Positions 23,854 through 31,194 are shown, counted from the first letter of the stretch. The stretch: 64,000 nucleotides of DNA from Betaproteobacteria bacterium (GCA_043743835.1 JAYTVT010000032.1:7599-71598); one strand, 5' to 3'. Numbers and translations: made by a program. Notes: generated by a model from the sequence alone, not told the origin.

Positions 23854-24777
23854 ATGGACCTCAAACAGCTGCAGTACTTTGTCCAGGTGGCCGAGCTGGG
23901 TGGTTTCACCCGCGCGGCCAGCGTGTTGCGGGTGGCGCAGCCGGCCCTGAGCCGCCAGGTTCGCGCTTTGGAGGTCGAGCTGCGCCAGCGCCTGTTTGAC
24001 CGCAACGGGCGTGGCGTGACGCTGACCGCCGCCGGCACGCGCCTGCTGGCCCACGGCCGCGGCATCCTGCAGCAGGTGGAGCGCGCCCGCCTGGATCTGG
24101 AAGACCAGCGCGGCGCGGCCTCGGGTTTGTTGTCCATTGGCCTGCCGCCCAGCGTAAGCCGCACGCTGACCGCGCCGCTGGTCGAGGCCTTTCGCGAACG
24201 CTTTCCCCGGGCCACCCTCAGTGTGGTGGAAGGGCTGTCCACCTACACCTTGGAGTGGCTGGCCCAAGGGCGCATCGACTGCGCGGTGGTCTACAACGCC
24301 ACGCCAGCGGCGGCCATCGACCTGGTGCCCGTGCTGCAGGAGCCCCTGCTCCTGGTGTCGGCGCGCACCGCCCGTACCCCTGCGGCCTTCCGGGGTCCGG
24401 CAGTTTCGCTGGCACATCTGTCCACCAAGGAACTGGTCATACCCAGCCGCCCGCACGCCATCCGCATGCGCCTGGAAACGGTGATGGCCGAAGCCGGCTG
24501 CAAGCCGCTGGTGGGCTTGGAGATTGAAAGCGTGCCGGCCATGCTGGACCTGGTTCAGCGCCATGCGCTGCACGCGGTGCTCAGCCTCAACGCAGTGCGC
24601 GCCAGCGGGCGCGAGCAGGCCTTTGTGGTTCAGCCCATTGGCCTGGGCCCACGCCAATACCTCAGCACCAGCCTGTGGCTGGCCACTTCTGCGCTGAGGC
24701 CACGAGGCCCGCTGCTGGACCAAGCGACCCAGGTGCTGCTGGAACTGCTGCAGCAAACGCTGACCCCCAAGGCCTGA
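23854..24777 (+). CDS. LysR-family transcriptional regulator of the lig/pob operon
   Basis: MDLKQLQYF...FTRAA...AQPALSRQVRALE HTH; divergent from the operon. Confidence 0.93.
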   Translation: MDLKQLQYFVQVAELGGFTRAASVLRVAQPALSRQVRALEVELRQRLFDRNGRGVTLTAAGTRLLAHGRGILQQVERARLDLEDQRGAASGLLSIGLPPSVSRTLTAPLVEAFRERFPRATLSVVEGLSTYTLEWLAQGRIDCAVVYNATPAAAIDLVPVLQEPLLLVSARTARTPAAFRGPAVSLAHLSTKELVIPSRPHAIRMRLETVMAEAGCKPLVGLEIESVPAMLDLVQRHALHAVLSLNAVRASGREQAFVVQPIGLGPRQYLSTSLWLATSALRPRGPLLDQATQVLLELLQQTLTPKA

Positions 24778-24932: not shown

Positions 24933-26453
24933 TTGAAGCCCGCCCACACCATGTTGAAGCGCCTTGGCGCCTGCACCCTGGCCGCCGCAGCGGCACTGTT
25001 TTCTGTGGCCGCCCATGCCGAGAACCACGCCCTGATCATGTGGATCGGTGACTACGGCGACCCCAAGAACGACCTGCCCGGCATTGACCTGGACGCGGCC
25101 AACGCCCGCCTGATCGCCCAGGCCATGGGCGTGCCCGACCGCAACATCACCGAAATCAGCAACGCCCGGCTGACCAAAGAAGGCATGCGCAACGGCCTGG
25201 TCAAGCTCTACCAGACCATCAAGGACGGCGACAAGGTCTTCATCTATTACTCGGGCCATGGCGGTCAGGTGCAGGGCCACGAAACCAGCGCCAAGTGCAG
25301 TGAAGTGCTGGTGGCCCGCGATGGCCTGGTGCTGGATGCGTTCTTGCAAGACGCGCTGACCACCATTGGCAAGCGTGCCAGCCAGGTGGTGATGATCAAC
25401 GACTCGTGCTTCTCGGGCGGTGCCGCGACCAAGAGCGCACTGCCCAGCGGTGAACCCGGCGACCGGGCCAAGTTCATCGCGCCCGACGCCAAGGCCAACT
25501 CGGCGGTGACCCAGGGCTACGCCTGTGGTGACCCGACCAACACCACCAAGATCACCCGCAGCCTGGGGGCGATGAGCAAAGATGCCCGCGGCCCGCAGGT
25601 GCTTTACATCGCGGCGTCCAACGACACCCAGGTGTCTTTTGCCACGCCCAAGGGCAGCGTTGGCACGCTCGCCTTTGCGCATTGCATCGGTCTGGCCCAC
25701 GCCGATACCGACCGCAGTGGCCGCATCAACGGGGAAGAGCTGCGCGAGTGCGCGCAGGCCTACATCGACAAACGCCGAACCAAGCAGACCATCACCCTGC
25801 AAGGCAACGAACGTTTGCCGCTGTCGTTTGTCAAGGCTGAAGCACCAGCGCCTGCCGCGGCACCCGCTCCGGTGGTGGCCCCAGCCCCCGCAGCGGCGCC
25901 TGCGCCCACCGCGGCACCTGCGCCTGCAGTGGCGCCCGCTCCAACCGCGGCACCCGCACCGGCCACGGTCAATGCGGCCCAAGCCCTGCATGACCTGCAA
26001 GCCGGCGCTGACCGCAGCGTGCAAGTGCAGCTGGCCCTGGCGCGGTCCAGCTTGCGCATCGGCAAAGATTTGCTGGAGTTCACGGTGAGCACCGGTCGCG
26101 AGGGCTACCTTTACCTGCTGCAGGTGGGCAGCGACGGCAAGACCTTCAACCTGCTCTTTCCCAACAAGGTCGACGGTGAGAACTTTCTGCCGGCCGGCAC
26201 CCACCGCTTTCCGCGCCCCAGCTGGCGTTTGCGCGCCGGTGGGCCGGTGGGCAAGAGCCACGTGTTGGCCATTGTTTCGCCGGAGAAAAAGGACCTGTCA
26301 CGCGGCATGGACGGCTCTTCGGTCTTCCCATCCAGCAGCGCCAACCAGCGCAACACGCGCACGCTGGTGGTGGAAGCCACGGGTGCCGATGGCGGTGGCT
26401 CTGGACGTTATGGCGCCAGTCAGGTGCTGACGGTTACCGAGACCGCGGAATGA
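24933..26453 (+). CDS. Secreted caspase-family (C14, metacaspase-like) protease with EF-hand-like loop, Pro/Ala linker and DUF4384-like C-terminal domain
   Basis: Signal peptide ending AHA; His motif YYSGHG; Cys motif NDSCFSG; C-terminal GYLYLLQVGSDG...LLFPN. TTG start after GAGGAG; alternative ATG at 24951. Confidence 0.88.
   Translation: MKPAHTMLKRLGACTLAAAAALFSVAAHAENHALIMWIGDYGDPKNDLPGIDLDAANARLIAQAMGVPDRNITEISNARLTKEGMRNGLVKLYQTIKDGDKVFIYYSGHGGQVQGHETSAKCSEVLVARDGLVLDAFLQDALTTIGKRASQVVMINDSCFSGGAATKSALPSGEPGDRAKFIAPDAKANSAVTQGYACGDPTNTTKITRSLGAMSKDARGPQVLYIAASNDTQVSFATPKGSVGTLAFAHCIGLAHADTDRSGRINGEELRECAQAYIDKRRTKQTITLQGNERLPLSFVKAEAPAPAAAPAPVVAPAPAAAPAPTAAPAPAVAPAPTAAPAPATVNAAQALHDLQAGADRSVQVQLALARSSLRIGKDLLEFTVSTGREGYLYLLQVGSDGKTFNLLFPNKVDGENFLPAGTHRFPRPSWRLRAGGPVGKSHVLAIVSPEKKDLSRGMDGSSVFPSSSANQRNTRTLVVEATGADGGGSGRYGASQVLTVTETAE
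25842..25964 (+). repeat. Pro/Ala tandem repeat linker (about 18-bp period, APAPxx)
   Basis: APAPAAAPAPVVAPAPAAAPAPTAAPAPAVAPAPTAAPAPA within the caspase CDS. Confidence 0.8.
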
Positions 26454-27784
26454 AGGGCGGACGGCGACTGGCTTGTTTGCTGCGGGCCGGCATGATGGAT
26501 CCCCGATTCACGCTCCACAGGTCGTCGGCCGCAGCCGCGCTTGTGCTGCTTGGCTGGAGTCCCATGGCGGGCTCAACCTCTGCCGTTTTGCCGCCTGCCG
26601 TTTTGTCGCCTGCAGTAGCGAAGGCATCGGCGGCGGACAGCGGCTCACCTGCAGCCCTGGCCCTTGCGCTGGCCGACCTGGGCGGTTCCATGCTGAACCA
26701 GTCCAGCGCCGTCAACGCGGTGCAGTCGCCCGTGGCGACGGCCGTGGCCCTGGGCCTGGTTCAAGCGGGTGCCAACGGGCCGTCCGAACAAGAGATCGAG
26801 GCACTCTTTGGGCCCCGCCCTGAGGGCGGGCGGGCGCTGCGCCAGGGCTTGCCAAGCTTGCTGCGCCAGATGCAGGGCGAGCCCGGAACGGCCTCGCCCT
26901 TGGCGCTGGCGGCGCGCATGTGGGTGGATGAAAAAGCGGTTGTGCCCAAGGCCTACAGCCAGCGGCTGGCCAGCCGCTGGCAGGCTGACTCGCAGCGCCT
27001 GGCGTTTGCCCAAAGCGAGGCGGCGCGTGCGCAGATCAATGGCTGGACGGCCGAGCGCACCGCCGGTCGTGTCAAGGACCTCTTGCCGTCCGGCAGCATC
27101 CATTCGGCAACCCAGATGGCGTTGACCTCGGCGGTGCACTTTCGCAGCCCTTGGGAAAAGCCTTTTGACCCCGCACAGACCACAGCCCGTCCTTTCAAGA
27201 CCGCCGCCGGCGACAGCAAAACGGTGCCAACCATGGTGGACGAACGTGCCGTCCTGCAGACCCGGGCGGACGGCCACCTGGTGATGGAAATCCCCTTTGC
27301 CACGCCCGCGGGCCGGCCCGGCTTTGCGCTGCTCATCGCGGTGCCAGACGAGGGTGCAGCGGGCCGAACGGCAACCAGCTCGGGTGCGCAGCTGGCTCGC
27401 TGGCGGGCCAGCATGGCGCCCATCAAGTGCGAACTCAGCTTGCCTCGTTTTGCCATCGCACCGCAGTCGGGTTCACTCAAATCCGTGTTGCAGGGTCTGG
27501 GTGTGAAGACCGTTTTCACCGACCGAGCCGACCTGCGCCCGATGCTGGGTCGAGGCGCGCAGCTGATGCACTTGGATGACGTGCACCAGGCCGCGGGTAT
27601 CACCGTGGACGAGCAGGGCGGCGAGGCGGTGGCGGCAGCCGCTGCCACCGTGCGCAGCAAGTCCATCGCGCTGCCGGTGCCAGCCTGCGCGGTGGACCGG
27701 GCTTTCACGTTTGCCTTGGTACACCAAGCCAGCGGAGCGCCTTTGTTTGTGGGCCGGGTGGGCGACCCGGTGCTGGCACCTTGA
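26450..27784 (+). CDS. Serpin (serine/cysteine protease inhibitor), probably exported
   Basis: SP..A.ALGLV..GA.G, INGWTAERTAGRV, VHFRSPWEKPF, LPRF, hinge DEQGGEAVAAA, and DRAFTF...LFVGRV. ATGA overlap with the caspase stop; the real start may be ATG 26492/26495. Confidence 0.92.
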   Translation: MKGGRRLACLLRAGMMDPRFTLHRSSAAAALVLLGWSPMAGSTSAVLPPAVLSPAVAKASAADSGSPAALALALADLGGSMLNQSSAVNAVQSPVATAVALGLVQAGANGPSEQEIEALFGPRPEGGRALRQGLPSLLRQMQGEPGTASPLALAARMWVDEKAVVPKAYSQRLASRWQADSQRLAFAQSEAARAQINGWTAERTAGRVKDLLPSGSIHSATQMALTSAVHFRSPWEKPFDPAQTTARPFKTAAGDSKTVPTMVDERAVLQTRADGHLVMEIPFATPAGRPGFALLIAVPDEGAAGRTATSSGAQLARWRASMAPIKCELSLPRFAIAPQSGSLKSVLQGLGVKTVFTDRADLRPMLGRGAQLMHLDDVHQAAGITVDEQGGEAVAAAAATVRSKSIALPVPACAVDRAFTFALVHQASGAPLFVGRVGDPVLAP

Positions 27785-27858
27785 AGGCCAGCTGCTCACA
27801 GCCAGTTGCGGACCGACCTGCCGACTGACCTGCTGACAGGCGGTGGTGGTGCCCGAGT

Positions 27859-28686
27859 TCAGCGTGACGACGCTGGCAACGGGCACAGCGGGCCAGGGCA
27901 GGCTGCAATTTGTGCGGTGGCGTGTTGGTACCACAGGCTCCCGGCAGCAGACTGCGCTTGGGGTAGTCCTTCGCGCTCGGTCATGAACGCGGGCAGCAAG
28001 CGGCGGGCCACGGCTTGGCGTTCTTGCGTTGGCACGGCTTGCCACTGTGGGTCTTGCCAACGCCACAAGCGCCCGGCGGCGTAGGTGCCAGCGCCTCGAC
28101 CGGCTTCGCGCCCGTTTTGCCAGCCACTGTCCATCAAGCTGCACGCGGTGCGCCCGGGCTCTTGAACCAGGATGGTCAGCGACTGCCACTCGCTGACCCT
28201 GCGGCATGCTGGCGCAGTGGCGGGTCCGGCCAGCGGTTTGTCGGGGTTGACCACGCACAACTCGTGCGAACTGACGCCCAGCCCGTTGCTGATGCCCAGC
28301 AACCTGGCCACCAGCCAGCGCGGCCTGCCATCGTCCGATAGGTTGGCGGGAAGCACTTCAAAGGCTGCAGCGCCAGTCATGGGCGAGACCTCGGTTGGCC
28401 ACCGCTGCACCACCTGGCCACCATTGCGGTGTTGGTATTGCCAGGCTTGGGGGGTTTTGCAGGCACACAGCAGCTGTTCGCCAGCCGCCGCGCAGACCGC
28501 CCGGGCGCAGCCCTGCAGTTGGCGCGGCCGCGGTGGCTCCCAGCGGGGGCCGACGGTGCACATGCGGTCGGCCACGGCATCGGCTGGCGGTGCGGCCCAA
28601 GTGTTGGGCAAGCCGAGGGTCGCCGCAGCCGGCAGCCAACTGCAACGCCGCAGCCAAACGAACAGCTGGGCAGACGCTGTCGCCAT
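27859..28686 (-). CDS. Cys-rich hypothetical exported protein
   Basis: TGATG coupling to the upstream gene; putative leader ending TWA; several Cys pairs; no recognised family. Confidence 0.55.
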   Translation of the reverse strand: MATASAQLFVWLRRCSWLPAAATLGLPNTWAAPPADAVADRMCTVGPRWEPPRPRQLQGCARAVCAAAGEQLLCACKTPQAWQYQHRNGGQVVQRWPTEVSPMTGAAAFEVLPANLSDDGRPRWLVARLLGISNGLGVSSHELCVVNPDKPLAGPATAPACRRVSEWQSLTILVQEPGRTACSLMDSGWQNGREAGRGAGTYAAGRLWRWQDPQWQAVPTQERQAVARRLLPAFMTEREGLPQAQSAAGSLWYQHATAQIAACPGPLCPLPASSR

Positions 28687-29180
28687 CAAGGCGTCGCAGC
28701 GACTTTCTTGGTGTACTTGTCGTAAGCGTTGTCCATGGCGCGCAGCAGACGGTTCAAGGTGGTCTTGAAGTCGCCCGGCACGACCAAGAACATTTCGGCC
28801 GCAAAGGTGGGGTCGCCGTCACTGTCCAAAAAGGCCTTGATCACCTTGACTTCGTTGCTGGCGGTGTTGACGCCTTCCAGACGCCGAATGCGGGCCTGGG
28901 GCGATTTGTCATCAGCCGAAAAGGCCAGGACCATGCGGAAGTAGGTCGCATCGTCCGCGTCGACATAGATGACGTAAGAGCGGCCTTCGCGGCGGAAACG
29001 CACGTTGCCGTTTTGCGTCAACTCAGGACGAAACCCTTCGGTGGCCAGGAAGTCGGAATAGGTGGTTTGCAGCTGCTGCTTGGTGTAGGTCTGGGCCGAA
29101 GCGGCGCCAGCGCCCAAGGTCAGCGCGGCGCACAGGGCCAGCGGGCAGGCGAGTTGCGAGAACATGGATTTTTTGTTCAT
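28686..29180 (-). CDS. Exported protein, YbjN-like (type III chaperone-like fold)
   Basis: Signal peptide ending ASA; FLATEGFRPE...GNVRFRREG and KVIKAFLDSDGD resemble the YbjN pattern. Confidence 0.6.
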   Translation of the reverse strand: MNKKSMFSQLACPLALCAALTLGAGAASAQTYTKQQLQTTYSDFLATEGFRPELTQNGNVRFRREGRSYVIYVDADDATYFRMVLAFSADDKSPQARIRRLEGVNTASNEVKVIKAFLDSDGDPTFAAEMFLVVPGDFKTTLNRLLRAMDNAYDKYTKKVAATP

Positions 29181-29218
29181 GAAGGGCTCTTCTCTGGGAG
29201 TGACGGAAAAAGGGTTGA

Positions 29219-30535
29219 TCAGAGTTTTTGCAAGGCGGCGCGTGCAAGGTCAACGTAGCGGCCGTTCGGGTAAGCGGCCAGGTAGGCTTCGTAGTCGGCC
29301 CGGCGCTTGCTGGTGGCGGCGCGGTCCCACAGCTCGAACTCTGCCTGCGGGTTGTGGGCTGCTGTGGGTTTGGGCGCGGCCACGGGCGCCGGTGCTGGTG
29401 CTGGGGCAGCAGCCATGCCCGCGATCTTGGTGCGGGCCTGGGGCGTGTAGCGGCCCTCAGGGTATTGCGACACGAACCGCTCCAGCGCGGCTCGGGTGCC
29501 CACTTTGACGGCGGCTTCCCAGTCGTCGAATTCGCGCTGCGGGCTGTAGCCACCTGGGGCAGGTGCTGGGGCCGGCGCCGGCGAAGGTGCCGGTGGCCTG
29601 ACCACAGGCGCCGGGGCCGGCGACGGTGGCGGTGGCGCGCTGAAGACAGGCGCCGGCGCAGGGGCTGGGCTCGGGGGCGCGAACACCGGGGCCGGCGCAG
29701 TTGACGGAATGGCTGAGCCGCTGGGGTAGAAGAAAAAGTCGGTCGACGACTCGTCCACCAGTGACGGCCGTTGCGCATGGTTGACGCTGGCCGCCGCCGT
29801 TTCCACACTGAGCTTGACCCGCTTGAGCATGTCGCCGGCCGACAAGCCCGGGTTGCGGATCTGTTTGATCAGTTCACGGGTAAACAGACCATTGGGCACC
29901 GTGTCGGCGTTGTTCAGGCGGTCCAGCGCTTCTTGCCCCTTGGACGCGGCCATGATGATCATGCTGCCCTTGGGAGGCTCGATGCGCCCCAGCCCAGAGC
30001 CCGGCGGCAAGGACCGGCCGTTGGTGGTTTCGCGGAAAGGGTCGTTGCGACAGGCGTCGATGATGACCAGCGAAAAGCGGGCGCGCTTATTCAGGTCGTC
30101 AACCAGTTGCTCCAGCGACAGCCCGTCGCGCGAAATGGCCCGTTCGCCGGTGACCTTGATGTCCACGGGCAGCAGGAAGGGCCCCATCTGCGGCGGCTGC
30201 GAACCGTGGCCGGAAAAAAAGAAGACCACCTCATCGCCTTTGTCGATGCGGCGCAAAAAACCATCGAGCTGGTCGTTCAAACCGTCTCGCGTGGCGTCCA
30301 GCACCCGGGTGACCTTGAAGCCGGCAGCCTCAAGTTCCCGGGCCAGCGACTGCGCGTCGTTGCGTGCATTGCGCAACTTGGTGATGCTGGTGTAGTTGTC
30401 GTTGCCCACCACCATGGCCAGGCGCGCCGCCTGGGCTTGCAACAGCAGGCAGGCGGCTGCAACCGCCGTGCTCAGCACCAGGCGTGGCAGGCGGGGGGCT
30501 TTGGCGAACCTGGGCGCCAGCCGTTGGGAACTCAT
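29219..30535 (-). CDS. Secreted caspase-family (C14, p20-type) protease with Pro-rich linker and two C-terminal helical repeats
   Basis: Signal peptide ending AQA; RLAMVVGNDNY, LRNARNDA, FFSGHG (His), IIDACRND (Cys), NGLFT; repeats EF..W...YP.GRY...AR. Confidence 0.9.
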   Translation of the reverse strand: MSSQRLAPRFAKAPRLPRLVLSTAVAAACLLLQAQAARLAMVVGNDNYTSITKLRNARNDAQSLARELEAAGFKVTRVLDATRDGLNDQLDGFLRRIDKGDEVVFFFSGHGSQPPQMGPFLLPVDIKVTGERAISRDGLSLEQLVDDLNKRARFSLVIIDACRNDPFRETTNGRSLPPGSGLGRIEPPKGSMIIMAASKGQEALDRLNNADTVPNGLFTRELIKQIRNPGLSAGDMLKRVKLSVETAAASVNHAQRPSLVDESSTDFFFYPSGSAIPSTAPAPVFAPPSPAPAPAPVFSAPPPPSPAPAPVVRPPAPSPAPAPAPAPGGYSPQREFDDWEAAVKVGTRAALERFVSQYPEGRYTPQARTKIAGMAAAPAPAPAPVAAPKPTAAHNPQAEFELWDRAATSKRRADYEAYLAAYPNGRYVDLARAALQKL

Positions 30536-31194
30536 TGCGGGGCCTTTCTGATTTCAACGCGGCGGTGCGTGCCGCTGGTGTCCTTGTTGTCGGCCAGCAG
30601 CCGGGTACTACCAAAACCGTAGGCCGACAGGCGCGGCTCGGCCACGCCCTTGGCCATCAGGTAGCGGCGCACGGCCAGCGCACGGGCACATGACAACTCC
30701 AGGTTGATGCGGGCGTCGCCGGTGGTGTCGGTGTGGCCGGCCACCGCAAAGCTGTCGCTGGCCAGTTCAGGGCGCTTGAGGGCTGCGGCCAAGGTGTCCA
30801 GCAGCGCGCGGTCGGGCGCGGTGAGTTTGTCCGACGCGTTGGCAAACTGCACGCTCAGGTTGACGCCAGGCGTGGTGTCGCCAGCGTAGGGCACGACTTC
30901 CAGGTTGCGCTTGTTGGATCCGGAAGGGGCGGCCGGGTTTGCAGCGGCAGGGGCTGCTTGTTCAGCGCACAGGCTGGACCCCACGTCGGGCAATTGGGTG
31001 CGTTTGAAGGACCGTGTGGCGGGCCCGCTGCTCAGCGCGTTGACGAGTGCGTCCACCGTGGTCTGGCTCATCGGCTGCTGGGCGTCGGCGGGCAAGCTGA
31101 CCGCCAACAAGGCCGCCAGGCCGACCGACACGACTGCCGTCGGCAAGGGCCAACGCGAGACAGCGGCAAGAAAGTGCAGGTGTTTGGCGGTCAT
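30532..31194 (-). CDS. OmpA-family peptidoglycan-binding domain protein, exported
   Basis: Signal peptide; VQFANAS, AGHTDTTG, NLELSCARA and RRVEI motifs; ATGA overlap with the caspase start. Confidence 0.9.
   Translation of the reverse strand: MTAKHLHFLAAVSRWPLPTAVVSVGLAALLAVSLPADAQQPMSQTTVDALVNALSSGPATRSFKRTQLPDVGSSLCAEQAAPAAANPAAPSGSNKRNLEVVPYAGDTTPGVNLSVQFANASDKLTAPDRALLDTLAAALKRPELASDSFAVAGHTDTTGDARINLELSCARALAVRRYLMAKGVAEPRLSAYGFGSTRLLADNKDTSGTHRRVEIRKAPQ

Follow-up and report, generated by a model that had tools for sequence, protein, structure and literature searches.

A conserved basic motif in the proteases, serpin and OmpA-like protein of an exported betaproteobacterial six-gene system is probably a protease-recognition motif

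The stretch of DNA considered here (the window, all 64,000 nucleotides of GCA_043743835.1 JAYTVT010000032.1:7599-71598, from a Betaproteobacteria bacterium) carries six genes between positions 24951 and 31194, arranged as two convergent operons. They encode two proteases of the C14 family, which we call caspase A and caspase B, together with a serpin, an OmpA-like protein and two further proteins, and the homologue records for these proteins come from Rubrivivax and other Burkholderiales. An earlier note on this DNA had pointed out a short recurring pattern, a basic residue followed by Ser, Thr or Asn and then by a hydrophobic residue, in four of these proteins, and had read its occurrences as shared processing sites. 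We herein analyze the seven sites it listed and argue from their sequences, with a probability of roughly 55%, that they represent one recognition motif of Arg/Lys-specific C14 proteases in an exported six-gene system. The genes are as follows.

24951..26453, plus strand: caspase A, with signal peptide, C14 domain (metacaspase-like, DSCFSGG), Pro/Ala linker, DUF4384 domain and C-terminal tail.
26450..27784, plus strand: serpin gene (Pfam serpin, 2.6e-69).
27859..28689, minus strand: Cys-rich protein, which matches no family and is conserved in related loci.
28686..29180, minus strand: YbjN-like exported protein (Pfam YbjN, 5.6e-5), conserved beside caspase B.
29219..30535, minus strand: caspase B, a DACR-type (MALT1-like) C14 protease whose C-terminal part holds two helical repeats (Pfam C14, 3.8e-31).
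30532..31194, minus strand: OmpA-like protein, with signal peptide, N-terminal extension of about 75 residues and OmpA_C domain (Pfam OmpA, 2.4e-20).

Each operon contains an ATGA overlap, which joins the serpin start to the caspase A stop codon on the plus strand and the caspase B start to the stop codon of the OmpA-like gene on the minus strand. A signal-peptide-like hydrophobic segment, read directly from the sequences, opens every product of both operons, and going by these signal peptides the six-gene system is an exported one. Pfam bears out the identities that the earlier note had given to the four motif-bearing proteins, returning C14 and DUF4384 for caspase A, serpin, C14 for caspase B, and OmpA. 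Caspase A matches C14 at 2.5e-13 (50.7 bits against a cut-off of 21.4) and DUF4384 at 1.8e-16. Its AlphaFold (AF2) model has an overall predicted local distance difference test (pLDDT) score of 86, and its nearest folds by Foldseek are AtMC9, GSU0716 and AtMC4, with expect values (E) of about 1e-14 to 1e-12. The serpin match scores 234.7 bits and extends over model positions 13-370 of 370, caspase B matches C14 with 109 bits (cut-off 21.4) and has an AlphaFold model with a pLDDT of 85, and the OmpA match of the OmpA-like protein (73.1 bits against a cut-off of 27.2) covers residues 117-209.

The seven peptides of the earlier note all lie where it had placed them. They are given below, together with the catalytic block of caspase A and the serpin hinge; caspase A is numbered from a long open reading frame starting at 24675, in which M93 is the probable start, and a hyphen marks the putative point of cleavage.

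25401..25415, plus strand: catalytic block DSCFS of caspase A, with Cys245 and with Asp243 as the putative S1-pocket Asp.
25422-25442, plus strand: caspase A site 1, AATK-SAL, basic residue K253.
25548-25568, plus strand: caspase A site 2, KITR-SLG, basic residue R295.
26349-26372, plus strand: caspase A tail motif, RNTR-TLVV, basic residue R562.
27611..27670, plus strand: serpin hinge and reactive-centre loop, EQGGEAVAAAAATVRSK followed by SIA, with P1 Lys404, P1' Ser and P2' Ile.
27653-27670, plus strand: serpin site RSK-SIA, with P1 Lys404, in the reactive-centre loop.
30005-30025, minus strand: caspase B site, TNGR-SLP, basic residue R174.
31003-31020, minus strand: OmpA motif 1, ATR-SFK, basic residue R61.
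30892-30915, minus strand: OmpA motif 2, NKR-NLEVV, basic residue R96.

Counted over the 1602 residues of all four proteins, the bare pattern [RK][STN][hydrophobic] has 17 matches; shuffling the sequences yields 11.4 ± 3.3, the rate in the genome's own proteins predicts 9.8, and the excess is not significant. Since the seven listed peptides were picked from these 17 and the count is near chance, the number of matches is by itself no evidence.

Conservation gives a different picture. Homologues were compared for caspase A (n = 119, 45-94% identity), the caspase B domain (149 diverse representatives, 33-83% identity), the OmpA-like protein (n = 120, 56-94% identity) and the serpin (n = 36, from related loci). 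At the seven listed sites the basic residue is kept in 97-100% of homologues and the whole motif in 86-100%, whereas nine of the ten unlisted matches retain the motif in only 0-0.59 of sequences; the tenth, DGK-TFN in the DUF4384 core, has a motif retention of 0.92. Among the 153 Arg and Lys residues of the four proteins, 31 are basic in at least 95% of homologues, and these include all seven listed sites (hypergeometric P = 8e-6). Furthermore, seven conserved triplets follow the order basic, small-polar, hydrophobic, versus one to four for five permuted orders of the same residue classes. The listed sites are therefore special, despite the uninformative bare motif. The search of the alignments for conserved islands in variable linkers, which the earlier note had suggested, was positive for all seven sites, and this pattern is clearest at R295 and K253 of caspase A and at R96 of the OmpA-like protein. 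The companion claim, that most of the sites are disordered or lie between subdomains, holds for K253, R295 and caspase B R174, which are found in low-pLDDT loops, and for the reactive-centre loop of the serpin; it fails for R562, which is in a confidently predicted helix, and for OmpA R61, which is in a conserved block, and R96 stands at the edge between a linker and such a block.

In caspase A, the His-Cys dyad is invariant in the 119 homologues, as are N, D, S, C, F, S, G and G of the Cys block. When caspase A is aligned to the plant metacaspase AtMC4 over SGHG and DSC[H/F]SGG, a Ser at position -2 of the His and an Asp at position -2 of the Cys coincide with AtMC4 Ser84 and Asp137, so that equivalents of these S1-pocket residues are retained. 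The Asp two residues ahead of the catalytic Cys is invariant in the caspase A and caspase B sets alike. For caspase A the pocket residues of the p20 side are matched by this alignment, and the seven sites would fit a protease with a basic P1.

Two of the three caspase A sites belong to the loop that follows the catalytic Cys, which extends from Cys153 to the strand at 217-221 (mature numbering), has pLDDT values of 45-80 and holds the conserved residues K161, K174 and R203. K253 is located eight residues past the catalytic Cys, where the catalytic block ends and a variable low-confidence loop begins (pLDDT about 65); the position is basic in 117 of 119 homologues, with mostly Ser or Ala at P1' and with L, V, A or I at P2'. 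R295 is a conserved island with variable and gapped flanks (pLDDT 50-63), basic in 116/119 and followed by a P2' Leu in 111/119, and in more distant relatives the site reads R-[SNT]-L-[EG]-V-V. The tail motif at R562 is basic in all 118 sequences compared and has its Leu in 115, its extended form is [RK]-[NST]-L-x-V-[VE], and AlphaFold places it within a confident predicted helix (mature residues 466-477). Two further elements of the loop are invariant, P/A-K-F (K266) and a Y-x-C-G-x3-N block (25455-25475 and 25530-25545); K266 is an additional conserved basic residue outside the original list, and the Cys of the Y-x-C-G block may form periplasmic disulfides with other invariant Cys residues.

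The OmpA-like protein carries two sites. R61 lies in the conserved block GP.T[RK][SA]F[RK]RT.LP, where the basic residue is found in 120/120 homologues and the Phe in 119/120, and distant OmpA partners have KTRSL, KTRSI or TRSW at the equivalent place. R96 is found where a variable Ala/Gly/Pro linker meets a conserved block, and it is Arg in 120/120, followed by N or T and then by L. A relative of caspase A from a different genus (locus L047) has in its tail the same string, KRNLEVV, that the window has at this site. The N-terminal extension, when searched for in 61 related and not independent genomes, was found in four beyond the organism's own, each time adjoining a caspase B orthologue.

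The serpin offers a bait of the same kind. Its hinge, E-Q-G-G-E-A-V-A-A-A-A-A-T-V-R-S-K-S with P1 assigned to the Lys by counting from the hinge, has A, V, A and A at P12-P9 and Gly instead of Thr/Ser at P14; with its small P15-P9 residues and a defined P1, this is by sequence a hinge of the inhibitory type. K-[ST]-[LFI] occupies P1-P2' in 35 of the 36 serpins of related loci, the exception being a frameshifted copy, and the bait resembles the [TS]-[KR]-[SA]-[LIV] pattern of caspase A site 1, with the same P1-P2' pattern. In 37 of 44 related loci the gene that immediately follows caspase A, on the same strand, encodes a serpin, and the arrangement extends to loci whose protease identity is as low as about 38%. 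Culturable carriers of the pair include Sphaerotilus mobilis, Ideonella livida and Pelomonas parva (L064, L068, L106). Metacaspases are known to be inhibited by serpins in plants and algae, as AtSerpin1 does with AtMC9 and AtMC1 (PMC10609998), and the targets of prokaryotic serpins have been termed enigmatic (PMC8233489). Frameshifts were seen in a few related genes: within the reactive-centre loop of one serpin (L051:4491-5433, one metagenome bin) and in the Pro/Ala linker of the caspase A gene of loci L031 and L069 (another metagenome bin). They may be assembly errors or decay.

Beyond the tripeptide, comparison with distant relatives brought out an extended motif, [RK]-[NST]-[LF]-x-[VI]-[VIE], as in RNLEVV, RSLGVV and RTLVVE, which is shared by site 2 and the tail of caspase A and by the stretch that immediately precedes the OmpA domain of neighbouring OmpA-like proteins. 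Its frequency in the proteins of the organism's own genome is 4.3e-5 per residue. Its presence at two fixed positions in the window, and at two or three in the majority of related loci, is therefore not a product of chance. The strings found in different proteins of one locus can be close to identical, as in the following loci.

L074: caspase A loop TRNFGAE; caspase A tail FRNFGAE; OmpA TRNFGVE.
L106: caspase A loop SRTLGVV; caspase A tail VRSLGVV; OmpA TRSLGVV.
L087: caspase A loop not matched; caspase A tail RNLRVEA; OmpA RNLQVEA.
L045: caspase A loop not matched; caspase A tail LRNLQVS; OmpA LRNLQVS.

Permutation tests on non-redundant loci point to a modest same-locus co-variation of this motif. 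In the anchored version, caspase A loop and tail gave p = 0.011 (n = 29), and OmpA and caspase A loop gave p = 0.0097. An unanchored test, which took the best 7-mer between OmpA N-termini and caspase tails and loops, gave p = 0.008 and 0.03; it was noisy because Ala/Gly/Pro-rich linkers produced spurious best matches, and anchored and exact-k-mer versions were added. Exact 4-mers are common to 8 of 21 same-locus pairs versus 19% of cross-locus pairs (p = 0.02). The automatic motif picks were wrong for the L079 tail, the L088 loop and the L062 OmpA protein and were left uncorrected in the tests. The core T-R-S-[LFI] recurs, in addition, in the N-terminal region of the OmpA partners and twice in the post-Cys loop of more distant C14-DUF4384 proteins. 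A second pair of this kind, which has no serpin, is present on contig 45 of the same genome (L049:4897-7445). There, an OmpA-like gene lies directly upstream of a C14-DUF4384 paralogue that is 37% identical to caspase A and has FRTRSL twice in its post-Cys loop, and the OmpA partner carries SRNRNLLV after an 'i.aL.P' helix.

Caspase B is a case apart. Its catalytic residues are kept almost throughout the representatives, H110 in 148/149 and C162 in 147/149, and R174 lies 12 residues past Cys162 in a coil between strands b4 and b5 (pLDDT about 58). The surrounding family motif is D-A-C-R-[DN]-N-P-[FL]-x3-G-R-[SANT]-[IVL]-G-x2-R-G-L, in which the site is basic in 149/149 and the second Arg is Ser in the window protein and its orthologues. 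The family is very large, with about 40,000 relatives at E <= 0.001, and a site that is basic throughout it characterizes the protease family as a whole and is not specific to this locus. The best match of caspase B, both by sequence (E 9e-9) and by fold (E 3e-16, template modelling score 0.80 to the caspase domain), is MALT1. By their Foldseek matches, caspase A and caspase B alike have the caspase-hemoglobinase fold. Classification of caspase B as a paracaspase of the MALT1 family was nevertheless rejected, as death and Ig domains were not found; besides the C14 domain, the only parts seen are a signal peptide and the two helical repeats. These repeats, of about 42 residues each (residues 332-373 and 396-437, encoded at 29219-29540), follow the pattern E-F-x-x-W...Y-P-x-G-R-Y, have Pro/Ala-rich linkers between them and are without a Pfam match.

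Among 44 loci with a caspase A relative, an OmpA-like gene lies within the fetched flanks of 29, and in a sample from the same bacterial family OmpA-like genes were found beside two of four C14-DUF4384 proteases. The association appears to lie with the protease and not with DUF4384, which also occurs in other settings. Kinase-DUF4384 genes make up 10 of 20 sampled DUF4384 loci of the bacterial family, and within the 6 kilobases fetched on either side of them nine of the ten have no OmpA gene, the remaining one having a weak OmpA-like match (E 6e-5) several kilobases off. Contig 102 of this genome (L132:6483-8486) encodes a Ser/Thr kinase with an extracytoplasmic DUF4384, preceded by a second kinase gene; it has neither an OmpA neighbour nor an R-x-L-x-V-V motif. 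Small DUF4384-only proteins of about 170-240 residues, with lipoprotein-like leaders (L.GC) and with the final YGAA...E strand kept, adjoin OmpA-like genes upstream of the caspase A-serpin pair; they are encoded in L062, L067, L074, L082, L083, L090, L103, L106 and L107. The tail motif is absent from nine of ten such paralogues, which indicates that it is not part of, or needed for, the DUF4384 fold. In another arrangement (L141, G459 contig 1, 5174000-5192000), six C14-family genes stand in tandem on a single strand and end with a C14-DUF4384 gene resembling caspase A, and a serpin or OmpA gene was not seen within the fetched stretch.

The arrangement of the sites invites comparison with characterized caspase homologues. 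Non-metazoan members, including the characterized bacterial enzyme, cleave after Arg or Lys (PMC5756287; PMC7935541). In AtMC4, the linker past the catalytic Cys is self-cut at K225, R180, R190, K210, K237 and K267, and K225 occupies the S1 pocket of the zymogen (10.1101/2020.03.09.983940). Caspase A has the DSC[H/F]SGG block, aligns with AtMC4 at the S1 residues Ser84 and Asp137, finds its best fold matches in AtMC9 and AtMC4, and has, like AtMC4, a long post-Cys loop with conserved Lys and Arg residues; K253, R295 and caspase B R174 fall in the analogous region. The pairing with an inhibitor-type serpin with a basic P1 likewise recalls plant metacaspases and AtSerpin1. On the other hand, the system differs from plant type II metacaspases in being bacterial and, by its signal peptides, exported, in its loop of about 64 residues, which is shorter than the plant linker, in the C-terminal DUF4384 and tail motif, in the genetic coupling of the serpin, and in the OmpA-like partner that carries the motif. 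The orthocaspase MaOC1 of Microcystis aeruginosa is also a prokaryotic C14 protease, which cuts after basic residues and must self-process for activity (PMC5756287; PMC7935541). In contrast to the present proteases, MaOC1 is a cytoplasmic enzyme that prefers basic clusters and lacks partners of the serpin or OmpA kind; the substrate known for it is an antitoxin.

Other comparisons concern caspase B and the gene neighbourhood. Caspase B has the D-x-C-R catalytic block of MALT1, which is Arg-specific; unlike MALT1 it is predicted to be exported, lacks death and Ig domains, and has in its loop the motif G-R-S-[ILV]-G that is conserved in a large family of bacterial proteins. Csx29 (TPR-CHAT, of type III-E CRISPR systems) is a caspase-like protease that cuts the product of a neighbouring gene, Csx30, in a flexible linker, but its system is cytoplasmic and RNA-triggered and has no serpin or OmpA. 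Cleavage by Csx29 is not known to be Arg-specific. OmpA-domain genes have been counted in 14 predicted prokaryotic metacaspase operons (Asplund-Samuelsson et al., 2012; PMC3501461); that survey is at the level of domains and reports no serpin, shared peptide motif or substrate relation. Neither the motif nor the pairing with a serpin was found described in the literature that we searched on DUF4384, bacterial caspase-serpin operons, GSU0716 and metacaspase-OmpA associations, a limited collection from which absence cannot be concluded. The system appears to pair a zymogen of the metacaspase type with a serpin as its brake, as plants do; what would be new is that it is exported and genetically coupled and is linked to an OmpA-like partner by a shared motif.

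Because the seven sites are conserved and in part co-vary across related bacteria, they probably represent one recognition motif, likely a cutting motif. The basic first residue, the predicted acidic S1 pocket, the three sites in zymogen loops and the matching serpin bait together point to the catalytic cleft as the reader. The original reading of shared processing sites is thereby supported in part, in so far as it implies a common protease-recognition motif, given the conservation, the matching P1-P2' of the serpin and the likeness and partial co-variation of the OmpA and caspase A motifs. It does not hold for the caspase B site as a specific feature of this locus, and the cascade that it proposed, in which the two caspases would mature each other, is a conjecture.

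Several observations weigh against this reading. A tripeptide is by its length not diagnostic, and the co-variation, measured on related loci that are not fully independent, is modest; in the anchored test, OmpA versus caspase A tail was not significant (p = 0.15, n = 14). R562 in its confidently predicted helix and OmpA R61 in its conserved block would have to be unfolded or exposed before a protease could reach them. The caspase B motif is universal in a family that mostly has no serpin or OmpA partners and could be a structural element of the loop, and among nine genus-level orthologues the loop motif of caspase B was not seen to co-vary with the motif of the OmpA-like protein. Moreover, strong prime-side specificity (P1'-P5') is, to our knowledge, not a feature of the caspase family.

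The main alternative, which we regard as unlikely, is that the extended motif, [RK]-[NST]-L-x-V-V, serves for docking to a non-catalytic surface, for example that of DUF4384 or of the OmpA domain, and is not a cleavage site. A short helix or strand would then tether the protease to the wall-bound OmpA protein, or would autoinhibit the protease through its own tail and loop. Such a role suits the helical tail motif and the small DUF4384 lipoprotein genes that adjoin motif-bearing OmpA genes in several loci, and any common binding site would give the same co-variation. Yet the motif always begins with Arg or Lys, as the P1 of these proteases would, and C14 proteases devoid of DUF4384 have a similar R-G-L-A-x-[IV]-E in their post-Cys loop. 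The OmpA gene of the window is itself coupled to caspase B, which has no DUF4384. A version in which DUF4384 is the reader is further weakened by the ten sampled kinase-DUF4384 genes, none with an adjoining OmpA gene apart from the one weak match several kilobases off, and by the kinase-DUF4384 protein of this genome, which is without the motif.

It seems quite improbable to us that each protein keeps its sites for structural reasons of its own and that their likeness is a low-information pattern chosen by eye. The chance-level motif count agrees with this idea, two other conserved matches are clearly structural (KTF, from the core of DUF4384, and RAL, from the OmpA domain), and OmpA R61 belongs to a conserved block. 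It leaves unaccounted for the identical strings of five to seven residues in partner proteins of one locus, the genome-wide rarity of the extended motif, the position of all seven sites within the conserved fifth of basic residues, and the lower yield of conserved triplets in the permuted-order controls. It is very unlikely, in our view, that the sites and the P1 Lys of the serpin are meant for some other enzyme with Arg/Lys specificity, for instance a trypsin-like serine protease whose gene lies elsewhere: a P1 Lys is the classical bait for trypsin-like enzymes, but the gene cluster contains no trypsin-like gene, the serpin gene overlaps the stop codon of caspase A and follows caspase A in most loci, and three of the sites are within the post-Cys loops of the proteases themselves.

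If the motif is read by the catalytic cleft, the loop sites K253, R295 and caspase B R174 would serve the zymogens as pseudosubstrates or for self-processing, by analogy with the AtMC4 linker, and the caspase A tail and the OmpA sites would be cut, or at least bound, by the same cleft. Cutting of the OmpA-like protein would part its predicted peptidoglycan-binding domain from its N-terminal module, and the serpin would trap the protease with the same P1-P2' sequence serving as bait. Extending this to a whole switch is more speculative, and we offer it tentatively, as a possibility that we hold to be rather doubtful: in the periplasm of Burkholderiales, a protease would cut its own loop and then its tail and its OmpA anchor, with the serpin setting a threshold and with a single co-evolving motif throughout, which would make the system a bacterial counterpart, placed on the envelope, of the metacaspase/serpin set-point of plants.

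Very little is known of what bacterial caspase homologues cut and which sequences they recognize, and MaOC1, the sole characterized enzyme, has one known substrate. If the recognition reading is true, the locus would name likely self-processing sites, a candidate natural substrate in the form of an OmpA-like protein predicted to bind peptidoglycan, and a cognate serpin with a matching bait. The motif would also give a sequence rule (T-R-S-L; R-N-L-x-V-V) by which further substrates may be found in genomes that have the system.

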